A stretch of 60,822 nt of DNA from Reclinomonas americana ATCC 50394 (Eukaryota): contig PS015019.1 in the NCBI GenBank assembly GCA_048213135.1, forward strand, positions 7,629-68,450, given 5' to 3'. A program made the translations under genes and the position numbers. This document shows, piece after piece, positions 24,825-60,676 of the stretch (positions within the stretch are counted from its first letter, which is position 1; each line of letters starts with the position of its first letter). Under the pieces are notes generated by a model that did no database searches, was not told the origin of the DNA, and worked only from the letters and a program-made list of their open reading frames with translations.

Positions 24825-24862
<38 letters not shown>

Positions 24863-24895
24863 CTGACACACACACTGACACACACACACACACAC

Positions 24896-24938
<43 letters not shown>

Positions 24939-26914: not shown

Positions 26915-27033
26915 ACAGAGAGTGTGTGTGTGTGCAGTGAGAGAGACTGCTTGTGAGAGCAGCAAGGGAAGGAGAAATGAGAGGAGTGAATCGTGAGCGG
27001 ACTGTCCCGTCACATTAGCATCAACAAGAACGA

Positions 27034-27939: not shown

Positions 27940-27984
<45 letters not shown>

Positions 27985-28058
27985 ACGCCTACGACGACGA
28001 CNNNNNNNNNNNNNNNNNNNNTCTCGTACGTACGTACGTCTCGTCTCTCTCTCTCTAC

Positions 28059-28101
<43 letters not shown>

Positions 28102-28106
28102 CTCTC

Positions 28107-28194
<88 letters not shown>

Positions 28195-29447
28195 CTCCTC
28201 CTCCTCCTCCTCCTCCTCCTCCTCCTCCTCCTCCTCCTCCTCCTCCTCCTCCTCCTCCTCCTCCTCCTCCTCCTCCTCCTCCCTCCCCCCCTTCCTCCTC
28301 CCCCTCCTGTCCCCCAGCGCTTCAAGCCGCCGTGCAGCGCTCTCCGAGACCCCCTCGCTGCACGTCATTTGCGCTGGCAGAACATACCATGCTCTGTTTT
28401 TCTCTGTCGGTCCTCGCTTTCTCTTTGCCTGCTCGTTCTCCTCTGGCCTTTCATGCGCATGAGTGCTTGTGCGCGCTTCACCGGCGCGCCCGCTCGGGCA
28501 TGAGGGGTCGGAGGAGAAACAGCAGGAGAGACTGGGAGGCCTGCGAGAGGGCGGCAGAGCGAGAGATTACAGAATGACCGCCCATGTCGCAGACACCGCA
28601 TGCGAGGCGGACAGATACGAGTCTCACATTCGTTGCCTTTTTTGCGCGCGCAGCCGGTGCCGACATCAAGGAGATGCAGCCAAAGTCGTTTGCCGACGTG
28701 TACTCGCAGCGCATGTTTGACGAGTTCGATTACGGCATTCGCGGGATTCACAAGCCAGTGCTGGCTGCCGTGAACGGCTTTGCGCTCGGCGGTGGCTGTG
28801 AGCTGGCCATGAGCTGCGACGTGATCTATGCAGGCGACAAGGTGCGCTGCGGGGGCGCTAACTTAAACCGCGTGACTTTTCTTGAATGCTCACCGATCCG
28901 TGCAGGCACAATTCGGGCAGCCCGAGATCAAGCTCGGCACCATCCCCGGCATGGGAGGCTCACAGCGCCTGACGCGTGCCATTGGCAAGTTCCGCTCGAT
29001 GCACATGAATTTGACGGGCGATTTTATCTCGGCAAAGGAGGCGGCGGAGTGGGGTTTGGCGGCCAAGGTGCGAGGCGGTGGCGGAGAAGCAGACATGGTC
29101 TGAACGTCGTACGCGCCTCACCCTTGTTATCACGCGCACAGATTTTCCCGGCCGAGGAGCTCGTCGACAAGGTCGTGGAGATTGGCGAAAAGATTGCCGG
29201 CTACTCGCAGATTGCTGGTGCGCCGTCCATGGTCATGTGCATCTTCTCTTGTCCCCGACACTCATCTATTTCCCCGTAAACAGTGGCCATTGCCAAGGAT
29301 GCGGTCAATGCTGCAGAGGAACTGTCGCTGAACGAGGGTCTCAAGTACGAGCGCCGCCTGTTCTGGTCGACTTTTGGCACTGTGGATCAAAAGGAGGGCA
29401 TGGCCGCGTTTACGGAGAAGCGCCCTGCCGCCTTCAAGAACAAGTAA
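27034..29447 (+). CDS. ECHS1: Mitochondrial short-chain enoyl-CoA hydratase (crotonase), 6 exons
   Basis: Transit-like exon [18 protein letters not shown] in phase with [12 protein letters not shown]...[12 protein letters not shown]...[23 protein letters not shown]...[26 protein letters not shown]...[13 protein letters not shown]. Confidence 0.96.
27567..28300. repeat. (CTT)n/(CT)n/(CCT)n compound microsatellite in enoyl-CoA hydratase intron 2
   Basis: Direct inspection. Confidence 0.95.
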
Positions 29448-29633: not shown

Positions 29634-32600
29634 TCACGTGCCTGAGGGCCATGCCGGCGACATGAAGCCTGGCGACTCGAGGTCGTCTCGCACAAACGGT
29701 GGCGCCGGCGACGCCAGTGGCAGTCGATTGGTCGCGCTCTGTTGACTGCGAATGTCGCGCAGCAGTGCCTTGGCCTCCTCCTTTTCCTGCAGATGGTCGA
29801 CGACATTGAGAGTATGACTCAGGTGGCGCATCGCATTGCAGCACGCAACTGGCGCTCCAGTGTCCAGCAGCTGCATGCAGTAGCTGATCGCCTCGTCGTT
29901 CTCACCGCACATGTGGTAGTACTGGGCCAGGAACATGAGAATCGGTGGCTCGACCGCGGCGTCACCCTGCAGTCGTCTCTGCACGAACACCAGCTTTGTG
30001 TACCAGTGCGCAGCCGTGTTCAAGTCATTCAGCTGCCGATACAACGCCGCTTGCTTGGCCAGCGCCACGGGATCGTACATGCGCAGCCAATTGTCGGGTT
30101 TCGAGTCGTCCAGCCCGTCCTCTTCGCGCGCTGCCCCCGTTGCTCCCCCAGCGGCTGCGCTGGCAGCGCCCGCAGTCGGCGACTCCTTGCCTCCTGCGTC
30201 CTCATTGGCCGACGAATCCACTCCCACAGCTGGCGTTGTGCGCGACGTGGACGAGGCCGACGGCGCGGCCGCCGCAGACGGTTGCGACGGTAGCGCCATC
30301 ACCACGTGCGATACCGGATGGGCGCGCCGATAGCATTCCAACGCCTCGCCGAATCGACGCAATTCCTCGTAGCAGCCGCCGAGCGCACACCACATGCGCG
30401 AGTCGTCTGGTCTCAACGTGGTAGCCTTGCGGTAGTAGTACAGGGCATACAGCGGCATGTGCAGCAGCTCGTACGTCTGACCCAGGCCGTACCAGGCGCG
30501 GTAGTCCCGCACGTTGATGTCTGTGGGAGAGTGCACAGAGTGAGCAAGGGAGACACGAGCTGGCCTTGATGCACACACACACATACCAACAGCCTTGCGA
30601 TACACGTAGATGGCGGCACCAATGTTCTTCAGCTCAATGTACTCGTGGCCCATCAGTGTCCACGCCGACACGTAGCTGCAGAAAATCTGTGAGACTCAAC
30701 CAACCCATTGCGTCACCAAACAAAAAGGAGAGACGCAACGTGGGATCCATTTGCAGCGCGCGGCGCAAGTACACCAGTGCCTTCTGGTGTTGTCTCCGCA
30801 GCGAGTAGTAGTTGCCGACCACACAGCACGTCTCCGGGCGGTACTTGTTCGCGGCGTGACACGCGTGCGCCAGTCGCGCTAGGGCACTGCGTTCCTCGCG
30901 CACGTAAAGAATGTTCGAATACATGTCCATGAGCTCCACGGCGAACGGATCGCGAATCACCAACTCCTCAAAGCACTCGTTGCTGGCCTCAAAATCTGCG
31001 GCACAGCAGCATGAGTCACGGGAAACGGAAGCATTGGCGTGATGCGCACTCACCTCGCAAAATCGAGTGCGCCGTCGCCCGTGGCCTCAACAACGTCAGC
31101 GCCGATGTCGCCAACAACTGCGTCTCCGCCGACGGTGGACCTTCCTCCGGCGCCATGAGCTGTTGCACGGCCAGCAACGCATCGCGCGGCTGCTGCAGCT
31201 CGACGCTCAGGTGCGCGATAAAATACTGAAATGCCCAGTGCTGGCGCACGGCACCGAAATCCAGTGTGGCGAACTGTGCGACGCGCGACAATGAGAGGTG
31301 GGAAACAGAGCTGGCGCACGGGAGAGCAACGCACATGCACGCGCTGTTGCGACACGAGTGTCGACAGCTCGACAAACGCCGACCACAAACAAGGATACAT
31401 TTGCAGCGCCGTGCACAGGCAGCGCGCGGCTCGTTCGTACTCGGCCAGGCGCGATAGTACAACGCCGTACAGGTACGAGTTGAAAGCGTCCAAGTCGCCG
31501 GCTGCGAGATGCGCGTGAGTGCTGCCCATCTCTCAGTCCATTCTCTCTCACACACACTCTCCAAAACCTTTCGCATCCGAGTCCAAATCATTGGCCAGCT
31601 CCTGCAACTCTCGATTCGGCTCGTGCACGCCAGCGAGGACGCCTGAGTGACGCTCTGTTTGCTCCTGTCGAGCACGCTCCTCGCCAGCCAAGTAGCGCGA
31701 GTAGCGGCGCAGGAAGCGAGCCTGGAAGGAGGAGAAGTGATTGGCAAGGAAGAGAGAAAGAGCAAGAGAAGAAGAAGGAGAAGAAGAAGGAGAAGGTGAA
31801 GAAAGAAGAGAAGAAGAAGAAGAATGAGGAGGAGAAGAAGGAGAAGAATACGAGGAGAGAGGAGAGTAGACAAGAGAAGAGAGGAAAGAGAGGGAGACAG
31901 GTGAGAAGAGCCGTGAGTGACAAACAAGAGAGAGGGAGAGAGGAGGATGAGGAGGAGGAGGAGGAGAAGAAGAAGAAGAAGAAGAAGAAGAAGAAGAAGA
32001 AGAAGAAGAAGAAGAAGAAGACGAAGAGCTGTGAGTGACAAACAAGAGAGAGGGAGAGAGAGGAAGAAGAAGAGACAAGAGAGTAAGTGAGATGCGGAAA
32101 GAAGAGAAGAAAGAAGAGGATACGGAGAGAAGAGAAGAGAGGGAGACAGGTGAGAGGAGCCGTGAGTGACAAACAAGAGAGGGAGAGACAAGAGAAAGAG
32201 AGAAAGAGAGAGAGAGTGAGGAAAGAGTAGAGACAAGAGAGAAATAAGAGTCACAGATCCCTCCCTTCAGTACGCACTCACCTTCTGTGAACGACACTGG
32301 CGGAGACTATATGAACAGCGACGCAGTTCTGCGCCCTCAAAGTACGACAAGGCCAGCGCGTATGTGTCATAATCCGCCCAGAAATCACTCGCCTGTTGCA
32401 CCAGTGAGCATTCTCTCTCTCTCTCACACACACACTGTGTCTCGCAACTTCCTCTTGCGCGACAGGTGCAGCAGCAGATGGTCGACATGAGGGAAACTGT
32501 GTGCTCACATCGTGCAGCACTTGCACCGCCCTGTGTGTGTTTGAGTGTGTGGTTGTTCAAACTCTCACTGTTTTGTCTCTCTCTCTCTTTCACGCACCAA

Positions 32601-32686
32601 CGCGCAGCATTGCGCAGACCGCGTGTGCCACAGTCGTGCGCAGCGTGACGCAGTTGTGTGGACCACTCCTGCGCGCGCTCTTCCAT
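29634..32686 (-). CDS. CDC23: Anaphase-promoting complex subunit 8 / CDC23 (TPR protein), multi-exon
   Basis: [102 protein letters not shown]. Confidence 0.96.
31745..32245. repeat. GA-rich tract with three gtgagtgacaaacaagagag modules in a CDC23 intron
   Basis: Modules at about 31913, 32031 and 32162, embedded in (GAA)n/(GGA)n. Confidence 0.9.
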
Positions 32687-33376
32687 CACTGAGTGAGGTT
32701 TTGTGGACGTTTTGTGAATGCGCGGGAAATGTGTGGGACAACTCACATACAACAGCAGGTTGCGTGGACGCCTACGGAAGCAGTAGTTGAGGGAGACGAA
32801 GTGGAGTAGGTGTTGGCGACGAGCTGAGTTGCGCGCAGAGAGAGAGAGGAGTCCAACCAACAACGTCGCACAATGCGACGTCGCGAAGATCCCGATATTC
32901 GCAGTCATGTCGAGGTGCAGCCGGTCAGCAACGGTGCGAGCCAGTGCACGTGCTGATCGTCCGTGCTCAGCCAAGCAGCGCTCCGCGTATATACATGTGG
33001 TTATTTCGATCGCGAAGTTGCAATTGGGCCGCGCTCGCCAGCTGCTCAACCGCAACAAACAATCGAAGCCCAACCACGAACCCAATTCACATACACAGCC
33101 TCTGCATCCATCCCTCTCCTCCGTATCACACAGGCCCACACGCACAGAGACCATCCAGCTGATCATGATCATGAGCGTTCGGATTCTCAAAAAACTCCAA
33201 TAACAACGCCTGCAGCCGCCCTTCTCGTGCACAGAGCTTCTCCAGGACACACTTTTACACCATACCCACCGGTCCGCGTACACAGCAGCAACATACACCA
33301 GCGCATCCACGCAAAAACGTCACAGGACAACCGTACTCTGTCTCTCTCCACCCACGCACCTTTTGCGACAGGAGAG

Positions 33377-42163: not shown

Positions 42164-45100
42164 ATGATGCGCTCGCATTCTGTGACATCGGTGGTGGTGC
42201 TCCTCGTGCTTCTCAGTGTGGTGGCACTGGCGGCACCGCGCACACCCGCTGTGCAAATCTACAATGGATCCACCCTCTTGTGTGGTGAGTGCGAATGTGT
42301 GTGAGTGTGCGTGCTCACCCTTGAGCTCTCTCTCATCACTCTCTCTCTTTCTTGCGCGCAGCGGGTGTGATGGTGTCGTCGACGGAGGTGTTGACGGCGG
42401 CCTCGTGTGTTGGCACACTGAGTGTGTCGTCGCTGTCGGTGCAGGTGGACGGGCAGACTGTGGCAGTGCAGGTGTGTGTGTGTGTGTCTCGTGAAAGGAC
42501 AAGTCTGTGCGCGAGGGCTGACTTGTCGGTGCGCAGTCGATTTTGAACGCGCAGGCTGGCGGCGAGCAAGGCGGTCAACAGGGTGGCCAGCAGGGCGGCC
42601 AGGAGGGTGGCCAGCAGGGCGGTCAGCAGGGCGGTCAGCAGGGTGGCCAGCAGGGTGGCCAGCAGGGTGGCCAACAGGGCGGTCAGCAGCAGGGTGGCCA
42701 ACAAGGCGGCCAGCAGGGTGGCCAACAGGGTGGCCAACAGGGTGGTCAGCAAGGTGGCCAGCAGGGTGGCCAGCAAGGTGGCCAGCAGGGTGGCCAACAG
42801 GGTGGCCAGCAGGGTGGCCAGCAGGGTGGCCAGCAGCCTCCGCAGCAAGGTGGTGAGCAGGGCCAGCAAGGCGGCCAGCAGCAGCCCCCTCAGCAGGGTG
42901 GCCAGCAGCAGGGCGGCCAGCAGCAGGGTGGCCAACAGCAGGGTGGCCAACAGCAGGGTGGCCAGCAGCAGGGTGGCCAGCAGCAAGGTGGCCAACAGCA
43001 GGGTGGCCAGCAGCAGGGTGGCCAGCAGCAGGGTGGCCAGCAGCAGGGCGGCCAACAGCAGGGCGGCCAACAGCAGGGTGGCCAACAGCAGGGCGGTCAG
43101 CAGCAGGGTGGCCAGCAGCAGGGCGGCCAGCAGCAGGGTGGCCAGCAGCAGGGCGGCCAGCAGCAGGGCGGCCAGCAGCAGGGTGGCCAGCAGCAGGGCG
43201 GTCAGCAGCAGGGTGGCCAGCAGCAGGGCGGCCAGCAGCAGGGCGGCCAGCNNNNNNNNNNNNNNNNNNNNNNNNNNNNNNNNNNNNNNNNNNNNNNNNN
43301 NNNNNNNNNNNNNNNNNNNNNNNNNNNNNNNNNNNNNNNNNNNNNNNNNNNNNNNNNNNNNNNNNNNNNNNNNNNNNNNNNNNNNNNNNNNNNNNNNNNN
43401 NNNNNNNNNNNNNNNNNNNNNNNNNNNNNNNNNNNNNNNNNNNNNNNNNNNNNNNNNNNNNNNNNNNNNNNNNNNNNNNNNNNNNNNNNNNNNNNNNNNN
43501 NNNNNNNNNNNNNNNNNNNNNNNNNNNNNNNNNNNNNNNNNNNNNNNNNNNNNNNNNNNNNNNNNNNNNNNNNNNNNNNNNNNNNNNNNNNNNNNNNNNN
43601 NNNNNNNNNNNNNNNNNNNNNNNNNNNNNNNNNNNNNNNNNNNNNNNNNNNNNNNNNNNNNNNNNNNNNNNNNNNNNNNNNNNNNNNNNNNNNNNNNNNN
43701 NNNNNNNNNNNNNNNNNNNNNNNNNNNNNNNNNNNNNNNNNNNNNNNNNNNNNNNNNNNNNNNNNNNNNNNNNNNNNNNNNNNNNNNNNNNNNNNNNNNN
43801 NNNNNNNNNNNNNNNNNNNNNNNNNNNNNNNNNNNNNNNNNNNNNNNNNNNNNNNNNNNNNNNNNNNNNNNNNNNNNNNNNNNNNNNNNNNNNNNNNNNN
43901 NNNNNNNNNNNNNNNNNNNNNNNNNNNNAGCAGGGTGCGCCGCTCGTCGTCCTCCGCCTAGCCTCGGCGGTGACGCTCTCCTCGTCCCCGCCGTCGATCA
44001 GCACCTCGGACACGCACAGCTTGTCGGGAATGCCGGTGGTGGTCCTGGTGCCCAATGGCGCCCCGGTGTACACCTCGGTGTCGTCGGCCAGCACCACCAC
44101 TACTACCACTGTGCGCGCGGCCGATCCGAACTGCCGCCCGACCAACGGGTCGGTGTGCCTCAACGATTGCGTCGAAGGTGCCTCCGGTGCGCCGATCCTG
44201 TCGGCCTCCACCGGCGAGCTGGTGGCCGTCGGCAGCGGCGCTGCGGCCGGTGCGTCGTGCTCGGGCAGTGCGGTGGCGGTGGCACCCGCCGCCACCTGGG
44301 TGCACGAGGTGGCTCCGCAGAGCACTCTGGCACAGTCGACCACCTCTGGCGGCAGCGCCTCGTCTTCATCGTCGAAGCGCACACTGATCATCGGCCTGTC
44401 CGCGGGACTCGGTGGCGGTGCGCTGGTGGCCGTCGGNNNNNNNNNNNNNNNNNNNNNNNNNNNNNNNNNNNNNNNNNNNNNNNNNNNNNNNNNNNNNNNN
44501 NNNNNNNNNNNNNNNNNNNNNNNNNNNNNNNNNNNNNNNNNNNNNNNNNNNNNNNNNNNNNNNNNNNNNNNNNNNNNNNNNNNNNNNNNNNNNNNNNNNN
44601 NNNNNNNNNNNNNNNNNNNNNNNNNNNNNNNNNNNNNNNNNNNNNNNNNNNNNNNNNNNNNNNNNNNNNNNNNNNNNNNNNNNNNNNNNNNNNNNNNNNN
44701 NNNNNNNNNNNNNNNNNNNNNNNNNNNNNNNNNNNNNNNNNNNNNNNNNNNNNNNNNNNNNNNNNNNNNNNNNNNNNNNNNNNNNNNNNNNNNNNNNNNN
44801 NNNNNNNNNNNNNNNNNNNNNNNNNNNNNNNNNNNNNNNNNNNNNNNNNNNNNNNNNNNNNNNNNNNNNNNNNNNNNNNNNNNNNNNNNNNNNNNNNNNN
44901 NNNNNNNNNCGTGGTCTTGGCCATTGTGCTGATGCGCCGTCGTCGTCGCCACTCGCTGCAGCAGCATCAGATGAAGAAGCTCGGCTCCACTGCCTCGTCG
45001 GTGGTCATTGACATGAAGACGGGTGCAGCGGCGGCCACGGACGACCTGCACACGAGTGGCTCGACAACTCCCGACGAGTGCGGCCTCAGCGATATTGACC

Positions 45101-45662: not shown

Positions 45663-48529
45663 ATGGACGATCGGCCATTCTCGCTGGCGTCCTCATCGCC
45701 AGCGCTCTCCATGAGCACCTCCTCCTCCGCATCACCCACCGAATCATCGTCGTCTTCGTCATCATCGCCCGTGCGTGGCGATCGAACCAACAGTGCGACT
45801 CTCATCCATTCACCTTTTCTCCATTGGTGATGTGTGTAACCTCTTTGTGCGTGTGTCTGTGTGTGCACAGGCGCTGCACCGCCGCATCGCCGTCGTCGAG
45901 ATTGGCGACGTCGCGGTCATCATCCACAATGTTGCGTATGGATGCAGTCGCTCGTTCCCTCTCTCTCTCTCACACACACACACGTTGACACTGACACACT
46001 TGTGCAGCATCGCCTCCGAGGGCGACACTGCGATCTGCGGTCGCGCAAGTCGCCGCCGACTTTGATTTCTCCTCGGCGGCACCCGCGGTTTGTGTTCCCT
46101 TTCCCTTCCCCTTTCATGCGCTCTGCGACTGACTGCATGCATGCATGCATCGTCAACGCGTAGGCCGGCGACTCGCGGTTCGTGAATGCACACTCTTGCA
46201 CGATCAAGGACGTGCATGCCTGACTGTATGTGCTTGCAGTCGACAACAGGAGCAGAGTTCTACCCTTCGCCAGCAGGTGTTCTCCTTGTCGGAGCGAGTG
46301 GGTCAGCTGCAAGACAAGGTGCCGTGTGAGTGACACTCTTCGCATGCTTTATAATCACTAATATCGTTAGCTGCACAAAAAGCTGGAGAAGGCGGACTCG
46401 TTGGTGGTGTATCATCGGCGGGAGGTGACTTCGCTGCGTGACGCACTGGAGGAGGCATTGGAGACGACGCGCAAGCTGGCATATGAGAACAAGTACGTAG
46501 TGTTGCTTGACATCTGTCATTTCTCTCTCTCTCTCTTGCTGAACTCCATTGCGCAGTCATCTGAACAAGGCACTGACGACGGCCGACGAGAAGCGGCACA
46601 CCATGGAGAGGAAGACTCGCGGCACTCTGGAAAAGACGCGGCAGTGTTTGCTTCGAGTTGCGCCCGTCAGTAAGCGCACACAAATGCTCGTTTGTCTCAC
46701 ATCGTCAGCGTCGCAGATGGAAAAGGACACCACACAACGCGATCAGGGCATCCGGCGCCTCACCAGTGTCATTTTGAATGCGGTGAAGACACTGGAGAGT
46801 GAGATTCACACGGGGCACGACAGACGCGCCGGTGGCGGTACTGCTGCCGCTGTTGTCATCGGCGACCCGCATCGACACTTGCTGACTGTTCGTCGAGCCG
46901 TCAAGTCGCTACAACAGCTGCTCACTGGCAGTGATGCTGGCGGCGGCGGTGGTGGTGCAGAGCAAGAGGTGCGCTGCTGAGCACTCCACTGCACGTGTAC
47001 ATTTTTTCACTGAACACAGAAGCGTATCACAGCTGCACACCGACTCGGCTGGCGTGTTGTCTCTCGAATTGCAACAGATGCAGCAGGAGCGTGCACAGCT
47101 GCGTGCCGCGCTTTGTAGGCGAGAGAGTGTGTGTGTGTGCTGTCTCCGTTGCTCATCGAACTCTACACAGACTGCGTCAGTCGCTGCGAGAGCGCGACAC
47201 GCTGCTTGCACAACTCTCGCGACAGAACGAGGAGTTTGCCACGCAAAACAACCTGCTGAAGGCGCAACTCGTGGAGGCGTCATCCTTGCAGCAGCGACTG
47301 CAGAGTGTGGTGCACGAGGCGGAGGAGCAGCTGACCAGCGAGCGACAGGCCTCCATGCAAGCTGCGACGTCGTGTGACCAGGTGGAGTGCTGCGATTTTT
47401 GCACGTGTTTGTCACATGCGCACTCACGCATTTGCGGTCACAGCTGCAAGCGGCTCTCAATGTGGAGCGCCAACGCACTGCGCACCTTGAGCAGCGTCTT
47501 GGACAGGCAGCGGAGCACTCGCGCATGGCTCGACTGATTCCGCGCTATCGAGACGCCGTCACAAAAGGTGCGCGCACACGTTCTTCCGTCATGCACGCCC
47601 CTCGAGTCTGCTCACTTTCTCACTCTCTCCCACCACCATTCTTCCTCGCAGTGCACCGACTCTGGCAGCAGGCGTTGCGACAAGGCCAAGCTTGTGCACA
47701 CGAATGCGACACGTTGCGCGGCGAGGTCACTGCTCTGCAACAGGCGTGCGAGCATGCACTGGCCGAGAAGGATGCGCTATCGCAGTCGATGCATACCGCC
47801 TCGTTGCTCGAGGCCGATGTGGCGCAGCTGCGCGAGACAGTGCGGTCGTTAGACATGGCGCTGGAGGATGCTCGCCGCGACCTGCAGCACGCACTGCAGC
47901 GAGAACAACGCGCACAGGCCACTGTGCACCTGCATGAGACCACCATTCGAGAGCTGCGCCAGATGTTGGCAAACGAGCGGCACCGGCGTGATGCAGCCGC
48001 CTTTGCGTCTCCATCGCCACCTCTTGCTGTGCAGCATGTGGCGCTGGGTCGTCCACGAGCGGAACCGCACCCACGATCGGCTGTCTCCCCCCAGCGACGA
48101 GGCAGCCAGGGGACACGAGAAGCTCCTGTAGGCAGTGTTGCTGACGATGTTGTTTTCGTCGGTGGTGATGAGGATGGAAACGACGGCGACGATCTGCTGG
48201 CACTGCCACCGGTATCGGAGTTGGAGGAGGAGCTGCGAGTGTTGCTCCAGCGGACTCCGCCACAGGCGCCACCACCGCCACCACCACCACCACCGTCGGC
48301 ATCGATGTATCGACCGACTGCTGCCAGTAACGTCATGGGTGGCATGCCGCCACCATCGCCACATTCGGGCGGCGTCTTACGACAGGAGATTCAGCACCTC
48401 GACGACGAAATAGCCCATTTGCAACAGTCGCTCCTCGAATGCGCCACGCCCAGCTCAACCGACATTGACGATGAGGCAGCGCTCCGGCGTGAGAGTGGTG
48501 GCAGTGGTTGGCGCAATGCACCTCAATAA
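45663..48529 (+). CDS. Long coiled-coil protein of unknown function, multi-exon
   Basis: Ser-rich N-terminus, many heptad-rich exons (REVTSLRDALEEALETTRKL, LRQSLRERDTLLAQLSRQNEE, LEADVAQLRETVRSL) and a C-terminal LRQEIQHLDDEIAHLQQSL. Confidence 0.7.
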
Positions 48530-48590: not shown

Positions 48591-51500
48591 TCACTTCCTT
48601 CGCCAGTGTGGCGTGCAGAACGCGTTACTGCAGTGAGTGATCATGAACCCCGTGGTGCCACTGCGGTAGCCCATGACTGGCATCTGATCCAGTCCAACGG
48701 CAATGGCCACACGATCGCCCTGCAGTGCGCCGACGAGTGAGGCGGAGTGTGAAGTGCTAATCGGCAACAAGAGACAACTGACCAAGTCCGTAGACATGTC
48801 GACAAGGCCGCTGTCGACCACAATAGCTGTCATGGTAGTGCACGACACCGACGAGCAGTGTGCCTGGAGAGCGCGGTGGTAAGCGATTATTGACTTTTCG
48901 ACAACAGCATTATAACCGTCATACTCACCGTCTTCACGACTTTGTTGCCGCTCAGGAGGTGCTGGAACGCCATAATTACGTAGCCGTCGAGACCAAGCGT
49001 GGCCGACACACTGCCGATGGCCTCAAACCCAACTGCACACAGGAAATATGTCATTAAAAGGACAAAAAGAGACGGGAAAGATGTAATGCAGCGAGAAACG
49101 AGAATGGATATCTCTCTCTCTCTCTCCCTCTTACCTCCGCCAGTGGTCACATCTGCTGTTGAGCAATCCTGTGCCTTGCAGTGCACCACCATCAACAACC
49201 CCGGCGACGTGTCGTCGTTCCGACACGCCATGAACGGGAACCCGTCGACACCAACGACCAAATTCACCGCCGCACTACGCGGTAAATGTCAACACGCCAC
49301 ACACACACGGACTACGAACAGGAGTGACACCTGCAGACGCACCCGTAGGATGTAGCCGACGATGTCACCTTTTGCGTTGTCGGCGCGGTCGACATGTCAA
49401 TAGCGCTGAAAGTGCCGAAATACAGCGCATTGTCACTGCCCTGGTAGGCGAAAATAATAAAGCCTGTCACTCCTTGCGTCATGGAAAATACACCTGCGAC
49501 GAGGACGGCAATCGCGACAGTGAGATAAAACGAATACTGGCGGTGCCGCGCCAACGGGGCACTCACCTGGCGAGACATTGTTAATTGTGTACGTGTAGTC
49601 GGGCGCCAACGTGCACAGAGTTTCTTTGCAATGCCTGATAATCAATGAGCCGCTCTGTAACAATGCAGCCACCACGGGTAAGCCGTCGGCGCCCATGGTA
49701 ATTTGCGTGTACTGTCGCCACACAGCGTAGCGTGGTTAGTCAAACAGTTGGCCGTTCACGCAAGAGACACAAGGCGCCGTACGCACTACAACTGTTCCAC
49801 CGAGGCTGAAGTGCGCGGGTGGTGTATCGATACCCTGACAGAGCACATTGCGACAATGGCCAATGGCTAGTTCGCCACCACGCGAGTATGCCACGAGGCC
49901 AAACGTGTCTGGTCCAACTGTCATACTCGTGGCAAAGCCGTAGTCTGACAGGCACGGTCAGGCTACAGAGCATACAAGCAGAATGAGCAAAGGAAGAACG
50001 CAACTAGAGGCGCCGCCACTGGCCTGATCGAGAAGCCAGGCGCGTGTGATACTGCAACCCGTGTCGAAGCAGTGCACAAGGATCAAGGCGTCCAGGGACG
50101 CGGAGCGCATCGGGAACAACGGCTTGCCGTCTGTGGCAGTAATACCATACATTTCGGCACCAAGATCCGTTGTTGTCAGTGTCGGGGGATCCTTGGCGAC
50201 CTGCGCACATTGGGAAGTAGAGGATGATGAGCATGTGACGAGGGTGAAGAATGACAGCAATCACAACGCAACTCCTGTTGAATCGAGTTCGTTGATGGTG
50301 ACTGGCGTCAGCGCCGGATACACGGGCAAGCGAGTCTGTCGGAAGCCAGGGTTGCCGGATACGGAAGCGAAAATGATACCGCCCACTGACATGTCGCGGT
50401 CGACAAACAGAGATCCTGCGGCACACACGGGGACAGCGTAGTCAGCGGTGTGAAAGATGGACTTGGGTGGGCACACAGAGTACACGCACCTTGAATGTTG
50501 AAATGTTGATCGGTCTGGATGTTGGAGGCGTCGAGGGCCTTCAGTTGTACCTGGTTGACGCCGGGTGTGCCAAACTTGATGCCCTCCAGACTCTCAATCA
50601 CGAGATTTTCTGCACACATACTTCAGTCAGCGCCCTCCCCCGCCACCGTGGTGTTCTGTGCCTCAAGACGCAACCTTCCAGCACGGTGGTGCCCTGCACG
50701 CGCAGGTTACCGTTGAGTCGCAAGTCGTTGACGGTGAAGCCACTGTCAATGGTGATTGTCTTGGGCGCGGAACGCCAGAGGGCGGGTGCATTTTGATCCA
50801 GTTGATCGCCGCCGATGTAGACCTTACCGGCGGAACCATTGGCATTGACCAAGCTCACCGTACCTGTGCAATCAGCGTGTCAGCAGAAGAACAAGCTCTC
50901 CCTGGGTGGGTGCAATCGCGCGTGCCACACTACCAGATAATGTCGTGTCACCATTGACCGTCAAGTCTTTGCCGATAAAGAGACTACCGTCAATGCGCTG
51001 TGATGCTGATATATCTAACACGCCGTCGGAACCCATGCCAATACGTAGTTGCAAATCGGCACCGAGGTACATGCTTGAGTTGACCAGCGTAACGTCGCCT
51101 GCATGCGATAACGCGATAAGTGACGTGATATGACTGGAGAGAGAGGCAAAACAGGAATAACAATGGCGACACGGTATCGCACCCGCGCAGCACGATGAAG
51201 AGAGGCACTCTCCTTGTTCCCAGCAACGCACCTTGGAAGTATGCTACTTGCGAAACGTGCAGTCCAGAGTTGAACGTGACGGTTCCCGTCGTGATATCCA
51301 TGTTGCCTGTGCTTGGCTTGATGTTGATGGTGTGTGTGGTGGAAGAGGAACCGGTGCCAGCGACGACCCACACCAAATCTCCATCCTGTCGCAGACATCG
51401 TCAATACAAATACCACCACTGCCATGCACGTTGTTGTTGCTTTCAACCGTACCTTGTTGACTGTCATCTTGAACTGGCCAGAGGGATTGGCCATGGAGAA

Positions 51501-54500
51501 CTCGGCCGTGGACTGCGCGCCTGTCGATCGGACAGAGAGAGTAGAATTGCCACCATCTGCAGTGAAACGAAAAAAGTGACGCGTGAGTGCGCACGCAACA
51601 AAGGGAACGAGTCTGCGAGTCCACTCGTTGCGCAACTGGGACTGAGCGGATTGGCCAACACGCGGAACTCGGCATTTCCAGAGCCCAACGGTTGCAGCTG
51701 CACAGCACCACGTAAGCGCATGCTACAAACAGTGGCAAGTAGACGTGATCGCACAACAAGCAAACCGTCCACTGCCGAGAAAAGAATGTGGCCGCCAACG
51801 GATCCCACTGCATGAGCGTCGTTGTCGTTGTAGATCCACCCACTGGCGTGGTCTCGCGAATCATTTTGAAAGTCGACCCGAGGCCTTGCAGGTAGTGCTT
51901 GCTATTCGCACTGGCCATCACCAACGAGGCCGGGAACGTGCCAGACGCCGCCGACTGCACCAGAACATTCGCCGCCTGCGTCCGTGACTGAATGGTAATG
52001 TCCATATTCGCACCAACGACGTTTGTTATCTGTGCGAAAAAGGGATGAGCAAGGAGGAGTAGATGAATTTGCGTGCTTCTCTCCCCCCTCACTGACAAGA
52101 GAGCGACAAAGAATGAGGCTCCACCCTCTTCCTTTTCTCCACCCATTTCTCTCTCTCCTTTCGCTGATACAGAATCGTACCGAGAAATCAGTGGCCGTCA
52201 CCACCACGGATCGTTGTGGGTCGCCTGTTGAGCTGACCGATTCGGTCACATCAAAGAAGCTCTGTAAAAACTGCGACTCTTTGTTGTAGTAGCGCATGGA
52301 GAACGTGCTGCCTTTTGCCGTCAGCTCAAAGGCATTGTTGCCGGAGGCCAAGCGGAGACCGGCACTAATGGCACAGAAGGCCGCAGTGAGTGGCACGGGG
52401 GGAGAGAGAGTGGGGAATCGTGCAAGCAACTCACCGCGCGGTGGGATTCTCTGCTTGCACAAAAATGCTGGAGGCACCCGTACGACTGGCTATCGTGGCC
52501 GTCAGCGGCTCGTCACGTGCGGTTGCAATCTGGAAACTACGACTGCGCATAACCACGTCGCCAGTCTCGCGAATCTCCATCACCTTGCCGGTGATACCGA
52601 GCCCGCTGGTGGAGTTGCGGGAGATGGAAAATCCACCAGTGTTCGACACACCCATGGCGTACGATACGTTGGCGCTCTCCAGGCGCAGCGAGCTGGTATG
52701 ATCCGGTGCACTGATAATCTGCAGCCGACGAATCGACAATCAGCACGATGACACCATAATGTTGCGCCTTACACACACGTGTACGCAACTCTCATTTCTG
52801 CATCGCCATTTACCGACACCAGCGCCGACGTCTGCGTGTCCTCTGACGAGATCAACAGACGCTGCGCGGTGAAGAGACCCTCTGTGCGCAGACCACGCGC
52901 CGAGAAATCGCCACCAGTGGAGAACGAGCCGTCGCGTCGAATTTGCAGGAGAAGAAAGTTGTCGCGCGACACAATAAAGGATCCGCTCCGGTTCTCTAGC
53001 ACAAGCGAGTCGCCGTCTGCAGACAGAGAAACGGTTGGATAATTGTGACCACAAGAAGAGATGAACAGGATGAGAACACACAGAGACACTTATGCTTCTT
53101 ACACCCACCGTACTCGAGACTGCCATCCTCTCGCACTGTACGATTGGCGTTCTCTTGCCGCAGGTACAGCTTGCCATCCAAAGAGCCCTCGCCAAAAATG
53201 TTGACATCGTTGTCCACAAGCACCATGCCTCCCTCAATGGTCAAACGCGTATTCGGCAGCGGAGTGAGGTCCTCCTCGCCCGTGTCGTCGGTCGGATGAG
53301 TTGTGTTGGTGCTGTTGGTGCCGGTGGCCGCTCGCAAATCGTACGCATCCAACTCAGCATCGTACGGTGCTGCATGCGGTGAGTAGGCCACAGCGGCGCG
53401 CTCATACTCGAAGCGGTTGCCCTGCGCCTCCATGAGTGAGTGGAATAGAAAGTCGACTAGAAAGCGTCAACCAACAAGCAATGTGTACCCGATGGTGGAA
53501 TTGATGCTTGGCAGGCGCCGTGCGCATTCGCAACGCGTTCGCGGCAGTGTCCACGGGAGCAGGCACTGCTGTAGTGCCAGTGCTGCCTGAGGAGAGCAAG
53601 GACCGACGACCGGCTCGTCCACCGGTCGGGAACAGTGGAACAGAGCGGCTTGTCGTTGTCGTAGTATCTGTGCGGCAGCAGAAAATACAAGTCAAAAACA
53701 TGAGGAGCAGAAACACTCTGGGGGTAAAACAACAACAACATATTCGCAACTCTTTGTCGCAAAGCTGCCTGTGAATTCGTGTCGTATTCTCATGCCGGGT
53801 GTGAACTCGCCGGTGGTGGAGTAGAGACCAAACTGTATATTCTGCGTGGTTCGATTCGCCTGCCGTATGTCGTTGACCATCGTGGTGATGCGCATGCTGG
53901 CGCCGTTCTTTGTGCGGTCCACAATCTGCGCGCGAGTTGAAGACGGGAGGCGGGACGAATCAGTGATGAGGAGGGCATCACTCACTGCACAGACACACGA
54001 CGTGCTCACCTCCAGCGTGTGCCGGGGAGTGTGTGCATTGATACCGACAAGGCCGTCGCGGGTGACAGTCAACACGGAACCAAAGGTCATCGAGCCGGCA
54101 AATGAAAACACCTCGCCGCCGACCATTGCAAAACCAATCCACGTCAGCATCGGAATGAGCAGCAACAGCGTCAAGATCATGAACGACAGCATGTAAATCT
54201 GCACAGGCACATAGATGCGTTGTGAGTGCGCACGAGCTAAGATGCGCGGATAAATGAAAAGAGAGAGAGAGCGCACCATGAACTGCTTCCACGACTCGGG
54301 GACACGCATGACGCGGCCCTTGGTGGTGCGTCCCTGCGTGAGGCGCTCATCCGTGCCCTTGAGGCGCACAAATGTCTTGCGCTCATCCTCTTCCGGAATC
54401 TCCACTCCGACAACGTCGTAGGCGGAGTAAGGGCGGCCCTGCAGGTACGAATGAATTCCACGGTGAGGATAGAGAGAAAATCACCGAGCCTGGTCGTGTG

Positions 54501-56535
54501 GACGACACAGAATACCGACGCAACTCCCGACGGTGAGCCAGGCGTGCCATTAATGGGTGGTCTACGCGCACCCGAAGCACGAGGATCAGTGGACGAGTTG
54601 CGCAGGTCAATGGTGGTCACTGCGTGGCGCGACACAGATGAGCGAGAGACACAGAGACCATGGCATGCGCGCGAGAGACGCAACGAGGGGCGGCATCCTG
54701 CAGCTGTCGCTCCACGGTGTTGAGGCGATCAAAGGTACCGGCATCTGTCGCACTGAAGCGGAACGTTGGCCGGTCCTCAACAGCCGGTGGCGGACGACTG
54801 CTCTCTGGTGGCAAATTCGGGGGCGGCCGAGGGAGTTCGCGACCTGTTGTTCCACACATTAGTAAACGCTCACTTCCCCTCTCTCCCTCTCCCTCTCCCT
54901 CTCTCTCGCTCACCAGGCAGGGTGGTCATGGCGCTCAGTGGTGATCGTTGAGAGGCCGGCGGTGGATTGCGTGAGGGGAACACACCGGCGGGGGAGCGCA
55001 AACCATCGCTGCCGAGCTCCATGGTACCGAGGTCGTCCAGCTCAATCGTGCTCTGCGCATCCCACACGATAAGCAACCCGATGAACGAGCACGTCGACAA
55101 TCAAAGAGCACACAACATCGTCAGGTCGACCACCAGCACGTGCAAAAATGTCCGACAGCGTGCGAGATTGCGTGGCAGGCGACGCAAAGCTGTCCATGAT
55201 GGAGTTTATGCGCTGTGGCGAATCAATGTTGACCGGCATCACAGCTCCACGCGATGCCTTCTTCTCGGCCATGTAGCGGCTGGCGTAGCCTGCGGGTGTG
55301 GCCGGTGGAATGCTGCCATGCGACGACGGCGACGACGCCGCAGCGGATCCAAGAGACATTGCCGATGCCGCAGCCGCGGCGGACGCAGACGCGGGTGGCG
55401 AAGCGGCGGTACTGGGCGCCATGGAAGCTGCGCCCGGCGAGATCAGCACACTATACAGCCAACGAGAACCACGCAACAGCGGCTCACCAAGATACGAGGC
55501 ACCGCGCGACACAAACAGGCCTTGACCCTCGCGACGCTGCTGCATGCTCTTTTCGAACGCCTCCATGGCTGTCGCACACACAGTGAGCACACACACGTTG
55601 TGGTATGCAGTGATGAAGACGCAACGTGTATCGTGTCGTTTGGCGCGCTGACCGCTGGCCGTCAGCTCCTGGCCTGCACACACACACATACACATCAGCA
55701 AATCGTGTCCGACCCGACCACGGCGCCAAATACACCCGGCGCAATAGAGATGCCACCAGTGTGTGCGTGGGTGTGGGTGTGTGCACACAAGTGGTACACA
55801 CACACTCAGAGAGCGACAGAGGAGAGGAGAGGGCGAAAGGCAAGGAGAGCGAGTGTGTCAACTGATATCTCACGCAGTGATCATCATCATCATCATCATC
55901 AAATGCCCGCGAGTACACACACACACACGCACGCACACACCCCACCACGTGTACAGACTGACTAACCATTGTGCGTGCACAGAAGAGCAACTCACTCTCT
56001 CTCTCTCTCTCTCTCTCTGCTCTCATCCTTTCCACTCTCTCTCACGCCACTCTCTCTCTCTCTCCGNNNNNNNNNNNNNNNNNNNNGGCGTGTTTGTGCA
56101 AGCGGAGAACCCGCGCGCTGCGCTCTCCACAGCCTCGCCACTCCTCATGACAGGAGGAGGAGGAGGCAGTGGAATGAACGCACCGGGTGCGCGTGGTGGT
56201 GGAGTCTCTCCGACTCCTCCCACGCAGCACAGAACCATGTCATCGTCGGCGTCGTCGTCGTCGCCAGGCGCGTCGCCCGGAAGAGGCTTTGATGCGGCCT
56301 CGGCTATCTATGGTGAGTGAGTGAGAGAGNNNNNNNNNNNNNNNNNNNNNNNNNNNNNNNNNNNNNNNNNNNNNNNNNNNNNNNNNNNNNNNNNNNNNNN
56401 NNNNNNNNNNNNNNNNNNNNNNNNTACGCGCTCAATCACGGGTTGGCGGATGAGATCACGACTGCCACTGCCTCCGCCTCCTCCTCCGCCTCCATTGGCG
56501 GCAGTGGCACGACCGCCGCCCTTGGGAGTGCTCAT
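48591..56535 (-). CDS. Large type II membrane protein: low-complexity cytoplasmic N-terminus, single TM, beta-rich fibre-like stalk, seven C-terminal G.DG...HC....C repeats; more than 20 exons
   Basis: TM IYMLSFMILTLLLLIPMLTWIGFAM (about 54125-54197), then DGLVGINAHTPRHTLE, G/S/T/V-rich strands (IDGSLFIGKDLTVNGDTTLSG, LRLNGNLRVQGTT), seven repeats, ending HCSNAFCTPHWRRK*. The model 5' of about 55670 is tentative because it includes a flipped contig at 56087-56329. Confidence 0.8.
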
Positions 56536-57921: not shown

Positions 57922-60676
57922 NNNNNNNNNNNNNNNNNNNNNNNNNNNNNNNNNNNNNNNNNNNNNNNNNNNNNNNNNNNNNNNNNNNNNNNNNNNNNNN
58001 NNNNNNNNNNNNNNNNNNNNNNNNNNNNNNNNNNNNNNNNNNNNNNNNNNNNNNNNNNNNNNNNNNNNNNNNNNNNNNNNNNNNNNNNNNNNNNNNNNNN
58101 NNNNNNNNNNNNNNNNNNNNNNNNNNNNNNNNNNNNNNNNNNNNNNNNNNNNNNNNNNNNNNNNNNNNNNNNNNNNNNNNNNNNNNNNNNNNNNNNNNNN
58201 NNNNNNNNNNNNNNNNNNNNNNNNNNNNNNNNNNNNNNNNNNNNNNNNNNNNNNNNNNNNNNNNNNNNNNNNNNNNNNNNNNNNNNNNNNNNNNNNNNNN
58301 NNNNNNNNNNNNNNNNNNNNNNNNNNNNNNNNNNNNNNNNNNNNNNNNNNNNNNNNNNNNNNNNNNNNNNNNNNNNNNNNNNNNNNNNNNNNNNNNNNNN
58401 NNNNNNNNNNNNNNNNNNNNNNNNNNNNNNNNNNNNNNNNNNNNNNNNNNNNNNNNNNNNNNNNNNNNNNNNNNNNNNNNNNNNNNNNNNNNNNNNNNNN
58501 NNNNNNNNNNNNNNNNNNNNNNNNNNNNNNNNNNNNNNNNNNNNNNNNNNNNNNNNNNNNNNNNNNNNNNNNNNNNNNNNNNNNNNNNNNNNNNNNNNNN
58601 NNNNNNNNNNNNNNNNNNNNNNNNNNNNNNNNNNNNNNNNNNNNNNNNNNNNNNNNNNNNNNNNNNNNNNNNNNNNNNNNNNNNNNNNNNNNNNNNNNNN
58701 NNNNNNNNNNNNNNNNNNNNNNNNNNNNNNNNNNNNNNNNNNNNNNNNNNNNNNNNNNNNNNNNNNNNNNNNNNNNNNNNNNNNNNNNNNNNGTGTGTGC
58801 CCAGCCCACGTTGTCGCGCTATTGCATATTCGGGCAGGGGTCCACTGAATCTCTCGAGGCTTTCCGTCTCGTCTCGTTATTCTGCAGCTTTCGCTCACTC
58901 GATCCATTCCACGTGCACAGCCGCTGAGCGTCTCCAAAATCCTGTCACGAATCATTGACCGAGGCGAATTCACATTCAGCGGAGGTGATGCCGCTCGCCT
59001 TTTTTTTTTCCCCCCTCTCTCGCTCACATTGCTGACTTCTTCTCCCGATAGCCACGCCCTCCAACACCCTGTCCAGTCGCATCTCCACCGATGCAAAGCG
59101 AGCCGACTCCAAGCTGGCCCGCGTCGGTGTGCAATACACCTTGAAATGCCTGCTGCCCGCAGGTGCCGTGGCGGCAACCGAGGCAGCTGTGGCGGCAGCA
59201 TCTGCAGCGGCCGCAGCGGGTTCCTCGTCAACGACCACGAGTGCGAGCGGGTCGCGGAGGGCAAAGGTGTGTGGTTTGGTGTTTTGAGGCTTGTGTGACG
59301 AGACACCGTCTCAGTGTCGAATGTGCCCGCAGGATGACGGTGCTGGGTCGAAGCGAGCAGCGGCCACTGCCGCCGCGAACGGTGCCCCACCGGTGAAGAA
59401 GCAGCGCAAGTCCAGTTGCGCCTCACCGAATGTCCAATCATCAAAAGACGTTGTCTCTCATTATTCCATTCGTCTCGCAGGGACGGCTGTTGGGTCGCAA
59501 TCTCACCCAGTAGCTGCGGTGCGTTGGCGCGAGACATGTTTCCACGCGCGAGGGAGGGAGCGCAGCGTCTCACTGACTACTCTGTGGCGTGCGTAGAAGG
59601 ACGAAGATACGGGGGCTGTGGAAACGGACGATGGTGGCAGTGAGGCAGACGGTGACGATCAGGTACGCCTATGTGATGTCATTGATCCATGCATGGCAGT
59701 AGTGTCACGACTCCGTATCGTGCAGTTGCCATTGCCGTACCGCGTAGCAGCCGGTTCTGCGGGTCTTAGTGTGTTTGTGACGTCGCTTGGTCGGGCATAC
59801 CGTGGCCAACTGAGGCATCTGTGGCAGTACCCAGGGTCATCAGAGGTGAAACGAGTGCGCAGAAAGAGGAAGGCTGACTCTCTATCCTCATCGATGATGA
59901 TTCTTCCGCAGTTGACCTTGACAATCGGTTACCAAGCAGTGTGGGTTCCCAAAAAGAACAGTGCCTATCGTGGTTGCACGTGGCACATGACGGTGGAGGA
60001 GCATGTGAACGGAGGGCCGGTGTTTGTAGTTGCGTCTGGGTCTGGCACTCTCTCTTGTTCACAAATCTGTGGTCTCACGTGTGCTGGGTGCNNNNNNNNN
60101 NNNNNNNNNNNNNNNNNNNNNNNNNNNNNNNNNNNNNNNNNNNNNNNNNNNNNNNNNNNNNNNNNNNNNNNNNNNNNNNNNNNNNNNNNNNNNNNNNNNN
60201 NNNNNNNNNNNNNNNNNNNNNNNNNNNNNNNNNNNNNNNNNNNNNNNNNNNNNNNNNNNNNNNNNNNNNNNNNNNNNNNNNNNNNNNNNNNNNNNNNNNN
60301 NNNNNNNNNNNNNNNNNNNNNNNNNNNNNNNNNNNNNNNNNNNNNNNNNNNNNNNNNNNNNNNNNNNNNNNNNNNNNNNNNNNNNNNNNNNNNNNNNNNN
60401 NNNNNNNNNNNNNNNNNNNNNGACGCGCAGATGTGGTGTCCTGAACTGGAGCTGGGGTTCTCTGGATCGACACCAGACGCACCATGGAAATCCTTGTTTG
60501 ATTCTCTGGGGTCACGGACGGCAATTGAATCACCGGGGGTACGCTGTCCCACTCACTCGATGTTGAGTCCTTTCCCATGCGTGCTCTGTTTCTCACATTG
60601 GTTCCCGTTGCAGCTCTGGGGCTATCTGGATCCTGCGGTGCGTCACGCAATAGCCTTACTGAGTCACAAAGAATAG
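57048..60676 (+). CDS. Chromatin-type protein with HARE-HTH and FYRN/FYRC domains, multi-exon with gaps
   Basis: In-phase exons give TWLGEAYFELMESKE|PLSVSKILSRIIDRGEFTFSG|ATPSNTLSSRISTDAKRADSKLARVG (HARE-HTH pattern), NLS-like PVKKQRK, then LPLPYRV...VTSLG...IGYQAVW...GPVFV and FSGSTPDAPW...LWGYLDPAVRHAI (FYRN/FYRC). Confidence 0.75.
57817..57920. repeat. (GTAT)n(GT)n microsatellite in an intron of the HARE-HTH/FYR gene
   Basis: Direct inspection. Confidence 0.95.

Follow-up and report, generated by a model that had tools for sequence, protein, structure and literature searches.

The window analyzed here is a stretch of 60,822 nucleotides (nt) from the protist Reclinomonas americana ATCC 50394 (GenBank assembly GCA_048213135.1, contig PS015019.1, positions 7,629 to 68,450 of the forward strand). 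The gene under study lies on its minus strand and is predicted to encode a membrane-anchored surface protein with a cytoplasmic N-terminus, a transmembrane (TM) helix, a long stalk and a C-terminal tip domain of bacterial type. Twenty-three exons running from 54438 to 48591 join into a single open frame of 3849 nt and 1282 amino acids (aa) with one terminal stop (stop codon at 48591-48593), and all 22 introns of this model are bounded by GT...AG. The chain was built from coordinates, and every peptide quoted in a first-pass annotation of the same DNA falls in the minus-strand frames of 48591-54480 and is contained in the spliced 1282-aa product. That annotation had described an intron-rich eukaryotic gene whose ectodomain starts at a ...HTLE|I... 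junction, and both points are borne out, the junction corresponding to an 84-nt intron at 54009-53926. The limits proposed for the gene, 48591-54200, held at the 3' end only: stop and end do lie at 48591, but 54200 marks just the acceptor of the TM exon, and the gene runs further 5', to 54929 or beyond. No paralogue was found elsewhere in the window.

The search for protist homologues returned an unnamed protein, ANDGO_00394 of the jakobid Andalucia godoyi (EukProt EP00762 P006096, annotated as 'hypothetical protein', 1396 aa; P0007 in the present set), which is the only relative found in another eukaryote. It was one of 10 matches at E<=1e-3 obtained with phmmer when the unspliced reading of 53752-54438 was compared with 1.84 billion (1.84e9) representative sequences. 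The spliced model is collinear with this protein (blastp E 7e-28, 2e-23 and 1e-12; 318 identities in 1134 aligned columns). When the unspliced reading itself is aligned with it by BLASTP, the alignment is gapped where the first intron is predicted, and across the second it shows gaps together with unmatched residues. ANDGO_00394 presents its parts in the same order, with a VP.SWK.FM motif, a TM helix, the elements G..GINA..P...EI and Q.IQFG.Y..G.F, and then the neck (SLFV..DMSV.GII.A.V..NPG) and a tip of seven repeats with cysteine (Cys) pairs that closes with the tail HCSN.FCTP..RR. Because the collinearity begins at the juxtamembrane motif and continues up to the C-terminal residues, the anchor, the stalk and the tip are read as a single protein; the first-pass annotation had considered that the TM part and the stalk might belong to separate genes, and the comparison with ANDGO_00394 argues for one gene. 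The two proteins differ in that identity is only 28%, the central stalk can barely be aligned, and the window protein holds an extra segment of about 45 aa that is not in ANDGO_00394. Taken one by one, 10 of the 23 exons score above all 200 shuffles against ANDGO_00394, and 4 more are reached by 1-2 shuffles. A further difference is found in gene structure, since genes of A. godoyi are mostly intron-less according to the main text of its genome paper (PMC7050145), whereas this gene has 25-26 introns. That main text, as distinct from its supplements, holds 0 occurrences of the ANDGO_00394 identifier, of 'propeller' or of 'surface protein' (PMC7050145).

The last ~350 aa of the protein consist of seven repeats of about 50 aa with the pattern G.DG.P...Y....L.V.HC....C, six of which carry the Cys pair, and they are distributed at about one repeat per exon. 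Repeat 1 (…LVHCFDTGC…, 50005..50200) is supported by the repeat profile, by the alignment with bacterial proteins and by the shuffles against ANDGO_00394. Repeats 2 (…IGHCRNVLC…, 49787..49944), 3 (…IRHCKETLC…, 49567..49711) and 5 (…VVHCKAQDC…, 49135..49274) are backed by the profile and the bacterial alignment, and both repeat 4, which is devoid of the Cys pair (49343..49493), and the first half of repeat 6 (48929..49032) by the profile. The Cys pair of repeat 6 (AHCSSVSC) and the start of repeat 7 are placed at 48783..48863 by the 23-exon chain, and an in-frame intron of 63 nt is set 3' of this exon because of the repeat spacing. The last exon (48591..48719) contributes repeat 7, the conserved tail ...THCSNAFCTPHWRRK and the stop, and 17 of 42 residues are the same as at the C-terminus of a Gaiellaceae protein (E 2e-9). 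Eight introns of mixed phases cut this bacterial-type seven-repeat domain (48591-50200, minus strand); if the domain is of bacterial origin, all of them were gained afterwards.

Several independent comparisons connect this domain with bacteria. Searching with a profile of the seven repeats, with 8000 candidates scored, picked out two proteins of bacterial or metagenomic origin, P0001 (E 2e-26) and P0002 (E 5e-20), and a 677-aa member of the P0002 cluster, P0014, is named from Thiolapillus sp. The spliced domain (aa 935-1282) aligns with P0001 and P0002 up to their C-termini (E 1e-18). Scanning one genome per prokaryotic species with ANDGO_00394 yielded 42 bacterial loci (E 3e-26 to 6e-5) from Actinomycetota, Chloroflexota, Acidobacteriota, Nitrospirota, Pseudomonadota and Myxococcota. 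Seven such repeats can also be read in the bacterial consensus, and hhalign gives a probability of 96.5 (E 8e-10) when the window repeats are set against 29 bacterial domains. The resemblance reaches the very end of the proteins: a tail of the form HC.N.FC.PY.RRR closes many bacterial loci, like HCSNAFCTPHWRRK in the window, with the pattern present in 10 of the 42 loci and in ANDGO_00394, and in 24 of the 42 loci the domain lies no more than 20 aa from the end of the open reading frame (ORF). Collagen triple-helix repeats precede the domain in 5 of 10 proteins scanned with Pfam, in P0001, and in 8 of the 25 ORFs with at least 100 aa upstream. These collagen-like bacterial proteins (such as P0001, L013 and L018) are homologous to the window protein over the whole C-terminal domain, with the same C-terminal position, Cys pairs and basic tail; they differ from it in their apparent signal peptides (recognized by eye in P0001 and P0002) and in their collagen or other N-terminal parts; no likeness to the stalk was found in any ORF of the 42 loci. 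The bacterial seven-repeat domain (...IG.DGLP.ISY.D.....LKVAHC.D.AC..., in L001-L042, P0001 and P0002) is itself widespread and has no Pfam model.

In a quick tree of 30 domains, the two eukaryotic ones pair with an SH-aLRT (approximate likelihood-ratio test) support of 95, on long branches and outside the 28 bacterial rows; L010, L012, L019, L022, L025, L029, L033-L038 and L040-L042 (with stops or partial), as well as P0002 and P0014, were left out. The donor lineage of the tip cannot be named because the eukaryotic pair falls outside the bacterial rows. IMG/VR yielded no relative of the tip. Regarding a possible function, weak matches to CV39L_fam_lectin were obtained with 4 of the 29 bacterial domains (best E 1.4e-5) and a match to beta_propeller_lectin with 1 of the 29, all of them far below the cut-offs; CV39L and BP39L are listed in class PropLec7C in a table of PMC11186620. 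Taken together, the alignments indicate that the tip is a bacterial-type domain, whose homology to the C-terminal domain of secreted bacterial proteins covers its full length. The demonstrable prokaryotic module is the tip and not the stalk, and it comes from cellular bacteria and not from phages. Two earlier proposals can be adjusted in this light. The globular tip of the first-pass annotation is substantiated insofar as a distinct seven-repeat C-terminal domain exists and aligns end to end with bacterial proteins. The idea of a domesticated prokaryotic or phage module applies to the tip, which is of bacterial type, but not to the stalk, which remained unmatched to tail-fibre PHROGs, Pfam and phage genomes.

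At the other end of the protein, three further 5' exons extend the chain to an ATG at 54929, giving a model of 26 exons and 1372 aa; the frame is also open to an ATG at about 55022, and an exon at 55566-55117, rich in serine, alanine and proline, can be joined via a 64-nt GT...AG intron to produce 27 exons and 1563 aa. The start of the gene is possibly the ATG at 54929 (the minimal prediction), that at about 55022, or that at 55566. The possible first coding exon (55117..55566), open from the latter ATG, is of low complexity, uncertain and devoid of homology support. The next exon (54914..55052, donor GTGAGC) holds two in-frame ATGs, one at about 55022 and the other at 54929, and it is followed by two cytoplasmic exons, one of them proline-rich (54685..54843) and the other at 54525..54619, both with frame-keeping GT-AG introns and GTTGCG donors. 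The cytoplasmic N-terminus, of low complexity, closes with the conserved VP.SWK.FM motif, carried by the juxtamembrane exon (54277..54438), which ends in ...RVPESWKQFM (KVPMSWKEFM in ANDGO_00394) and places basic residues ahead of the TM helix. The sole hydrophobic segment of the protein occupies aa 331-348 of the long, 27-exon model (Kyte-Doolittle windows >1.6), the N-terminus is not hydrophobic, and basic residues stand on the N-side of the hydrophobic segment. These features predict a type II single-pass protein, in line with the single TM helix without signal peptide that had been proposed. The ectodomain measures about 1200 aa and holds 11 N-x-S/T sequons across its whole length, where several had been noticed; the cysteines of the model are confined to the C-terminal domain (13, against 0 in the stalk).

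The TM exon (54010..54198) also encodes, just outside the membrane, a motif of fibre type (...SFAGSMTFGSVLTVTRDGLVGINAHTPRHTLE), and this exon aligns with ANDGO_00394 at a Smith-Waterman z of 18.7. The 10 phmmer matches to the region (E 1.7e-7 to 9.1e-4) have as named sources a jakobid, a green alga, a bacterial metagenome-assembled genome and two unnamed hypothetical proteins, the other five being without a name. Apart from ANDGO_00394, eight of the nine were scanned with the expression G.[VIL]G[IV][GN], and seven carry 3-36 copies of it; P0006 has 0 copies, and P0004, judged by eye to be another kind of tandem-repeat protein, was left out. Two of the seven (P0009 and P0012) contain the Peptidase_S74 chaperone, and all three of the seven that were scanned against PHROGs (P0011, P0009 and P0005) match the tail-fibre families 18345 and 9942 (E 1e-45 to 1e-24). 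All phmmer domain matches to the nine proteins fall within model aa 70-186. A profile built from 68 fibre repeats matches model aa 91-120 with 21.8 bits, compared with at most 5.7 in 200 shuffles; in ANDGO_00394 it matches 265-289 (9.7 bits), and it has no other significant match. In agreement with this, hhalign of the two-protein stalk alignment against the repeat profile gives one match of 23 columns with a probability of 82.6 (0.2 in the reversed control), and BLASTP against P0011 gives 8e-6. A weak match was also obtained in the PDB, to chain positions 114-147 of 8ond_A (E 0.06-0.2), the Bdellovibrio protein Bd2133. This protein is described as a trimeric MAT (mosaic adhesive trimer) fibre with a beta-helix part, and by arithmetic from the construct 662-1031 the matched positions correspond to its first beta-helix (PMC10769870).

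These matches indicate that the G-N-V-G-I-G-T motif outside the membrane is common to bacterial and phage fibres. In the Bdellovibrio MAT fibres and the phage tail fibres (PHROGs 18345 and 9942, and fibres with the S74 chaperone) it takes the form of a shared element of about 30 aa, ...F.AGS.....L.[IV]T..G.VGI.....P. Of the fibre patterns put forward in the first-pass annotation, the G.VGI....P...LE(V/I) element is upheld by phmmer, profile and hhalign, but over just ~23-30 residues, and the G.L.V.G pattern of the distal stalk matches nothing. A partial protein from the green alga Chlamydomonas eustigma (P0010, GAX83306.1) holds 4 copies of the G-N-V-G-I-G-T fibre repeat, so that such repeats also occur in other eukaryote records (a green-alga assembly).

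The stalk that follows comprises about 830 aa, of which 51% are G/S/T/N/V/A and 3.1% proline, and is Cys-free. It is built of weak repeats of about 70-105 aa, the clearest at aa 361-454, 455-545 and 549 onward of the 23-exon model; among pairs of segments, 3 of 210 in the window protein and 5 of 171 in ANDGO_00394 exceed the best of 300 shuffles. The exon after the TM exon (IVDRTKNG...QNIQFGLYSTTGEF..., 53751..53925) reaches a score against ANDGO_00394 that 0 of 200 shuffles attain. The next (53109..53456) has an uncertain acceptor, because its first ~45 aa are without counterpart in ANDGO_00394; the intron between both (53750-53457) is, at 294 nt, the largest predicted. A candidate extra exon from 53667 was left out: it keeps the frame only with the weak donors 53623, 53611 or 53608, and the strong-looking donor at 53489 breaks the frame and leaves an intron of 32 nt. 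Exon 52814..53016 (LQIRRDGSFSTGGDF) aligns with ANDGO_00394 at z=8.6, and 52435..52718 represents one whole internal repeat (SSLRLES...MEIRETGDVVMR), recognized by its similarity to the next two exons and without individual support from ANDGO_00394. The second repeat begins with AGLRLASGNNAFEL in 52181..52364, placed by the 23-exon chain and the internal repeat, and ends in 51766..52029, where the third begins (1 of 200 shuffles). Frame-keeping is the only criterion for the short exon 51637..51697 (donor GTTGCG) and for 51453..51556, 51232..51385 and the distal exon 50490..50609. Two other distal exons are compared with ANDGO_00394 at 0 of 200 shuffles (50934..51098, IDGSLFIGKDLTVNGDTTLSG, whose best match is a neighbouring repeat) and at 14 of 200 (50675..50863, LRLNGNLRVQGTTVLE). 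The stalk ends in the neck exon (50273..50415, SLFVDRDMSVGGIIFASVSGNPGF), its best conserved piece, with 16 of 24 residues identical to ANDGO_00394 990-1013 (E 4e-8).

Pfam, PHROGs and NCBIfam returned nothing for the stalk exons or for the stalk of ANDGO_00394, and PHROGs specifically returned no tail family for 10 exons at E up to 1 and none for ANDGO_00394. The S74 domain is not present in the window exons or in ANDGO_00394 according to Pfam. By tblastn against 50,697 phage records no match was obtained with ANDGO_00394 or the TM-proximal part, and one exon reached E 0.2 only. PDB sequence searches with the repeat exon and ANDGO_00394 gave no stalk relative, and a word-based protein search with one stalk exon and a two-repeat ORF gave nothing; neither did metagenome scans with the neck and TM patterns, nor viral scans of IMG/VR, recover a relative. 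When the stalk was compared with every ORF of the 42 bacterial loci, nothing fell below E 0.4.

The main alternative view is that the stalk is a monomeric spacer, beta-rich or partly disordered and glycosylated, such as a mucin-like rod or a beta-solenoid, which would carry one bacterial-type binding domain, the fibre motif being a relic or a convergent beta-hairpin. It would explain why a mere 23-30 residues match fibre repeats, and it fits the weakness of the internal repeats, the poor conservation of the central stalk between the window protein and ANDGO_00394, the stretches rich in serine and threonine and the 11 sequons. However, the motif sits exactly where a fibre would be expected to start and is conserved in ANDGO_00394, it occurs in proteins that are trimeric fibres, the bacterial relatives of the tip are often mounted on obligate trimers, and a Cys-free stalk with so little proline is unlike mucins. 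On balance a monomeric spacer appears somewhat unlikely, and a trimeric fibre is preferred here: a trimer is inferred because the motif occurs in trimeric beta-helices and because the bacterial relatives of the tip often stand on collagen trimers.

A trimeric stalk would also be expected if the protein were a distant sarcoglycan-like type II protein, whose trimeric beta-helix would be older than animals, a likeness that had been suggested for the TM-proximal segment. Short words such as LRLES presumably recur in both sarcoglycans and the window protein. The sarcoglycan ectodomain has about 250 aa and ends in a small Cys cluster, whereas that of the window protein measures about 1200 aa, with a 350-aa domain of seven repeats at its end. 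No sarcoglycan family was recovered from Pfam with the exons (E up to 1) or with ANDGO_00394 (E up to 0.1), and no sarcoglycan chain from the PDB at E up to 10 with the TM-proximal part, the repeat exon or ANDGO_00394, so the proposed likeness is not sustained. Among the 10 phmmer matches, none was recognized as coming from an animal. For a phage-fibre module inside a membrane protein of eukaryotes there is a precedent in MYRF, an animal membrane-bound factor with a phage-type beta-helical stalk (S74/ICA). MYRF carries an S74 self-cleaving domain and a DNA-binding domain, neither of which is found by Pfam in the window protein. As to what is shared with sarcoglycans, the type II single-pass topology is alike, and the trimeric beta-helix that beta-, gamma- and delta-sarcoglycan build, as reported in PMC12404760, is the ectodomain architecture proposed for this stalk. 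Nevertheless, the window protein is about five times larger, bears an unrelated C-terminal domain and would need to assemble as a homotrimer, and a sarcoglycan-like origin is considered very unlikely.

The surroundings of the gene are those of a draft eukaryotic scaffold with about 57% G+C. The window contains 19 runs of N that add up to 6561 bases (for example 10205-10979, 11606-12440, 18112-19013, 43252-43928 and 57922-58792), and the apparent islands of 17-35% G+C and the six-frame 'ORFs' found there are due to these runs. Long CA, CTCTC, TCT and TC microsatellite arrays with up to 126 copies extend over 24827-28308 and explain the strongly negative GC and AT skew in the 24-30 kb region. 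A fragment of a VPS13 adaptor-binding domain is encoded at 13117-14073 (plus strand, E 3.9e-5), and 29634-33319 on the minus strand encodes a fragment of a TPR protein (TPR_1 1.9e-19) whose N-terminal domain is that of ANAPC8/Cdc23 (E 1.4e-6). A convergent open frame of 383 codons with a poly-proline run and coiled-coil-like sequence (47378-48529, plus strand) ends about 60 bases from the stop of the fibre gene and has no Pfam match. Rfam and tRNA scans of the window returned nothing. Regarding splicing, the 26 introns of the long model are all GT-AG, with a median length of 72.5 nt, acceptors CAG (23) or TAG (3) and a G+C content slightly lower than that of the exons (0.538 versus 0.578). GTTGCG (7) and GTGCGT (4) recur among their donor hexamers and may be a lineage-typical splice signal.

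A draft scaffold with so many runs of N, a tip of bacterial type and a gene model derived from DNA alone raise the question of whether the gene could be an artefact, that is, wrongly chained genes, contamination from bacteria or viruses, or a viral sequence inserted recently. Such an explanation is extremely unlikely. The same order of parts exists in one protein of another eukaryote, eight GT-AG introns lie inside the bacterial-type domain, no run of N falls within 48591-55566, the neighbours VPS13 and Cdc23 are ordinary eukaryotic genes, and no relative was found in IMG/VR or the phage records. The chain is a genuine nuclear gene, from a protist rich in introns.

Considering all these data, the protein is probably a surface fibre of four parts, namely a cytoplasmic N-terminus, a TM helix, a stalk with a fibre-type start and a bacterial-type tip, which would present a ligand-binding tip outside the cell. 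According to this reading of the sequence, three chains would assemble from the membrane outward into a fibre whose stalk would keep the tip domains at a distance of tens of nanometres from the cell. These domains would probably be seven-bladed, disulfide-braced, lectin-like propellers, and they might bind a ligand, perhaps a glycan, on prey bacteria, the substrate or other cells; at the cell surface the protein would serve in adhesion or in the recognition of prey. The terms 'propeller' and 'lectin-like' are inferred ones, because the tip has neither a Pfam model nor a PDB relative and the lectin matches are sub-threshold.

Various results weigh against this fibre. The likeness to fibres is limited to the ~23-30 residues beside the membrane (SFAGSMTFGSVLTVTRDGLVGINAHTPRHTLE), a single copy of the regular-expression motif is present in the model and another in ANDGO_00394, and the ~800 stalk residues beyond the motif match nothing in Pfam, PHROGs, NCBIfam, the PDB or phage genomes. 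Nine of the 23 exons (5, 6, 8, 9, 10, 12, 13, 18 and 20) have no individual homology support, their scores against ANDGO_00394 being reached by 14-150 shuffles. These exons belong mainly to the central stalk, where the model is founded on frame-keeping and splice signals only, and for some exons the best match in ANDGO_00394 is a neighbouring repeat and not the collinear one. In bacteria, 17 of the 25 ORFs show no collagen run ahead of the domain. PDB profile searches with the tip domain gave no relative, and the lectin-family models of NCBIfam gave no match for ANDGO_00394 or the window exons. The fibre and propeller folds and the trimeric state should be regarded as putative.

Among known systems, the fibre proposed here shares its overall logic with Bdellovibrio MAT and phage tail fibres, which likewise combine a long stalk with an exchangeable C-terminal tip. 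It departs from them in having one motif copy instead of 3-36, no match to a fibre profile along the stalk and no S74 domain, and in its eukaryotic type II TM anchor and its other tip; its trimeric state, too, is a prediction. The gene is placed here with the modular fibre adhesins without being a member of the tail-fibre or sarcoglycan families. A more elaborate scenario can be drawn, in which a lineage of bacterivorous flagellates made a 'tail fibre' of its own, a homotrimeric, membrane-anchored beta-helical fibre with a base derived from bacterial or phage fibre repeats and a lectin-like propeller tip captured from bacterial collagen-like adhesins. With this fibre, the eukaryotic equivalent of the Bdellovibrio MAT fibres, the cell would recognize and hold bacteria as prey; it would be old enough to have acquired 25-26 introns and to occur in Andalucia as well. 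Taken as a whole, this scenario is rather unlikely.

The four-part protein and ANDGO_00394 form an undescribed chimeric family, so far of two protists. Full-text literature searches that combined tail fibers with protists, horizontal transfer or triple beta-helix, or that addressed a Chlorovirus glycoprotein repeat, found no such family described. The gene thus defines a family named in no library, which unites a eukaryotic anchor, a fibre-type stalk start and a bacterial tip, and provides a candidate surface receptor. At the same time, it draws attention to a widespread bacterial domain that lacks a Pfam model and is carried on collagen-like stalks. Molecular knowledge of how heterotrophic flagellates recognize and hold bacterial prey is poor, and jakobids are a key lineage for early eukaryote evolution. 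If the trimeric fibre and sugar binding hold true, predators in two domains of life would have arrived at one and the same device, in part by means of common components; otherwise, the gene would encode a lineage-restricted surface protein of moderate interest.

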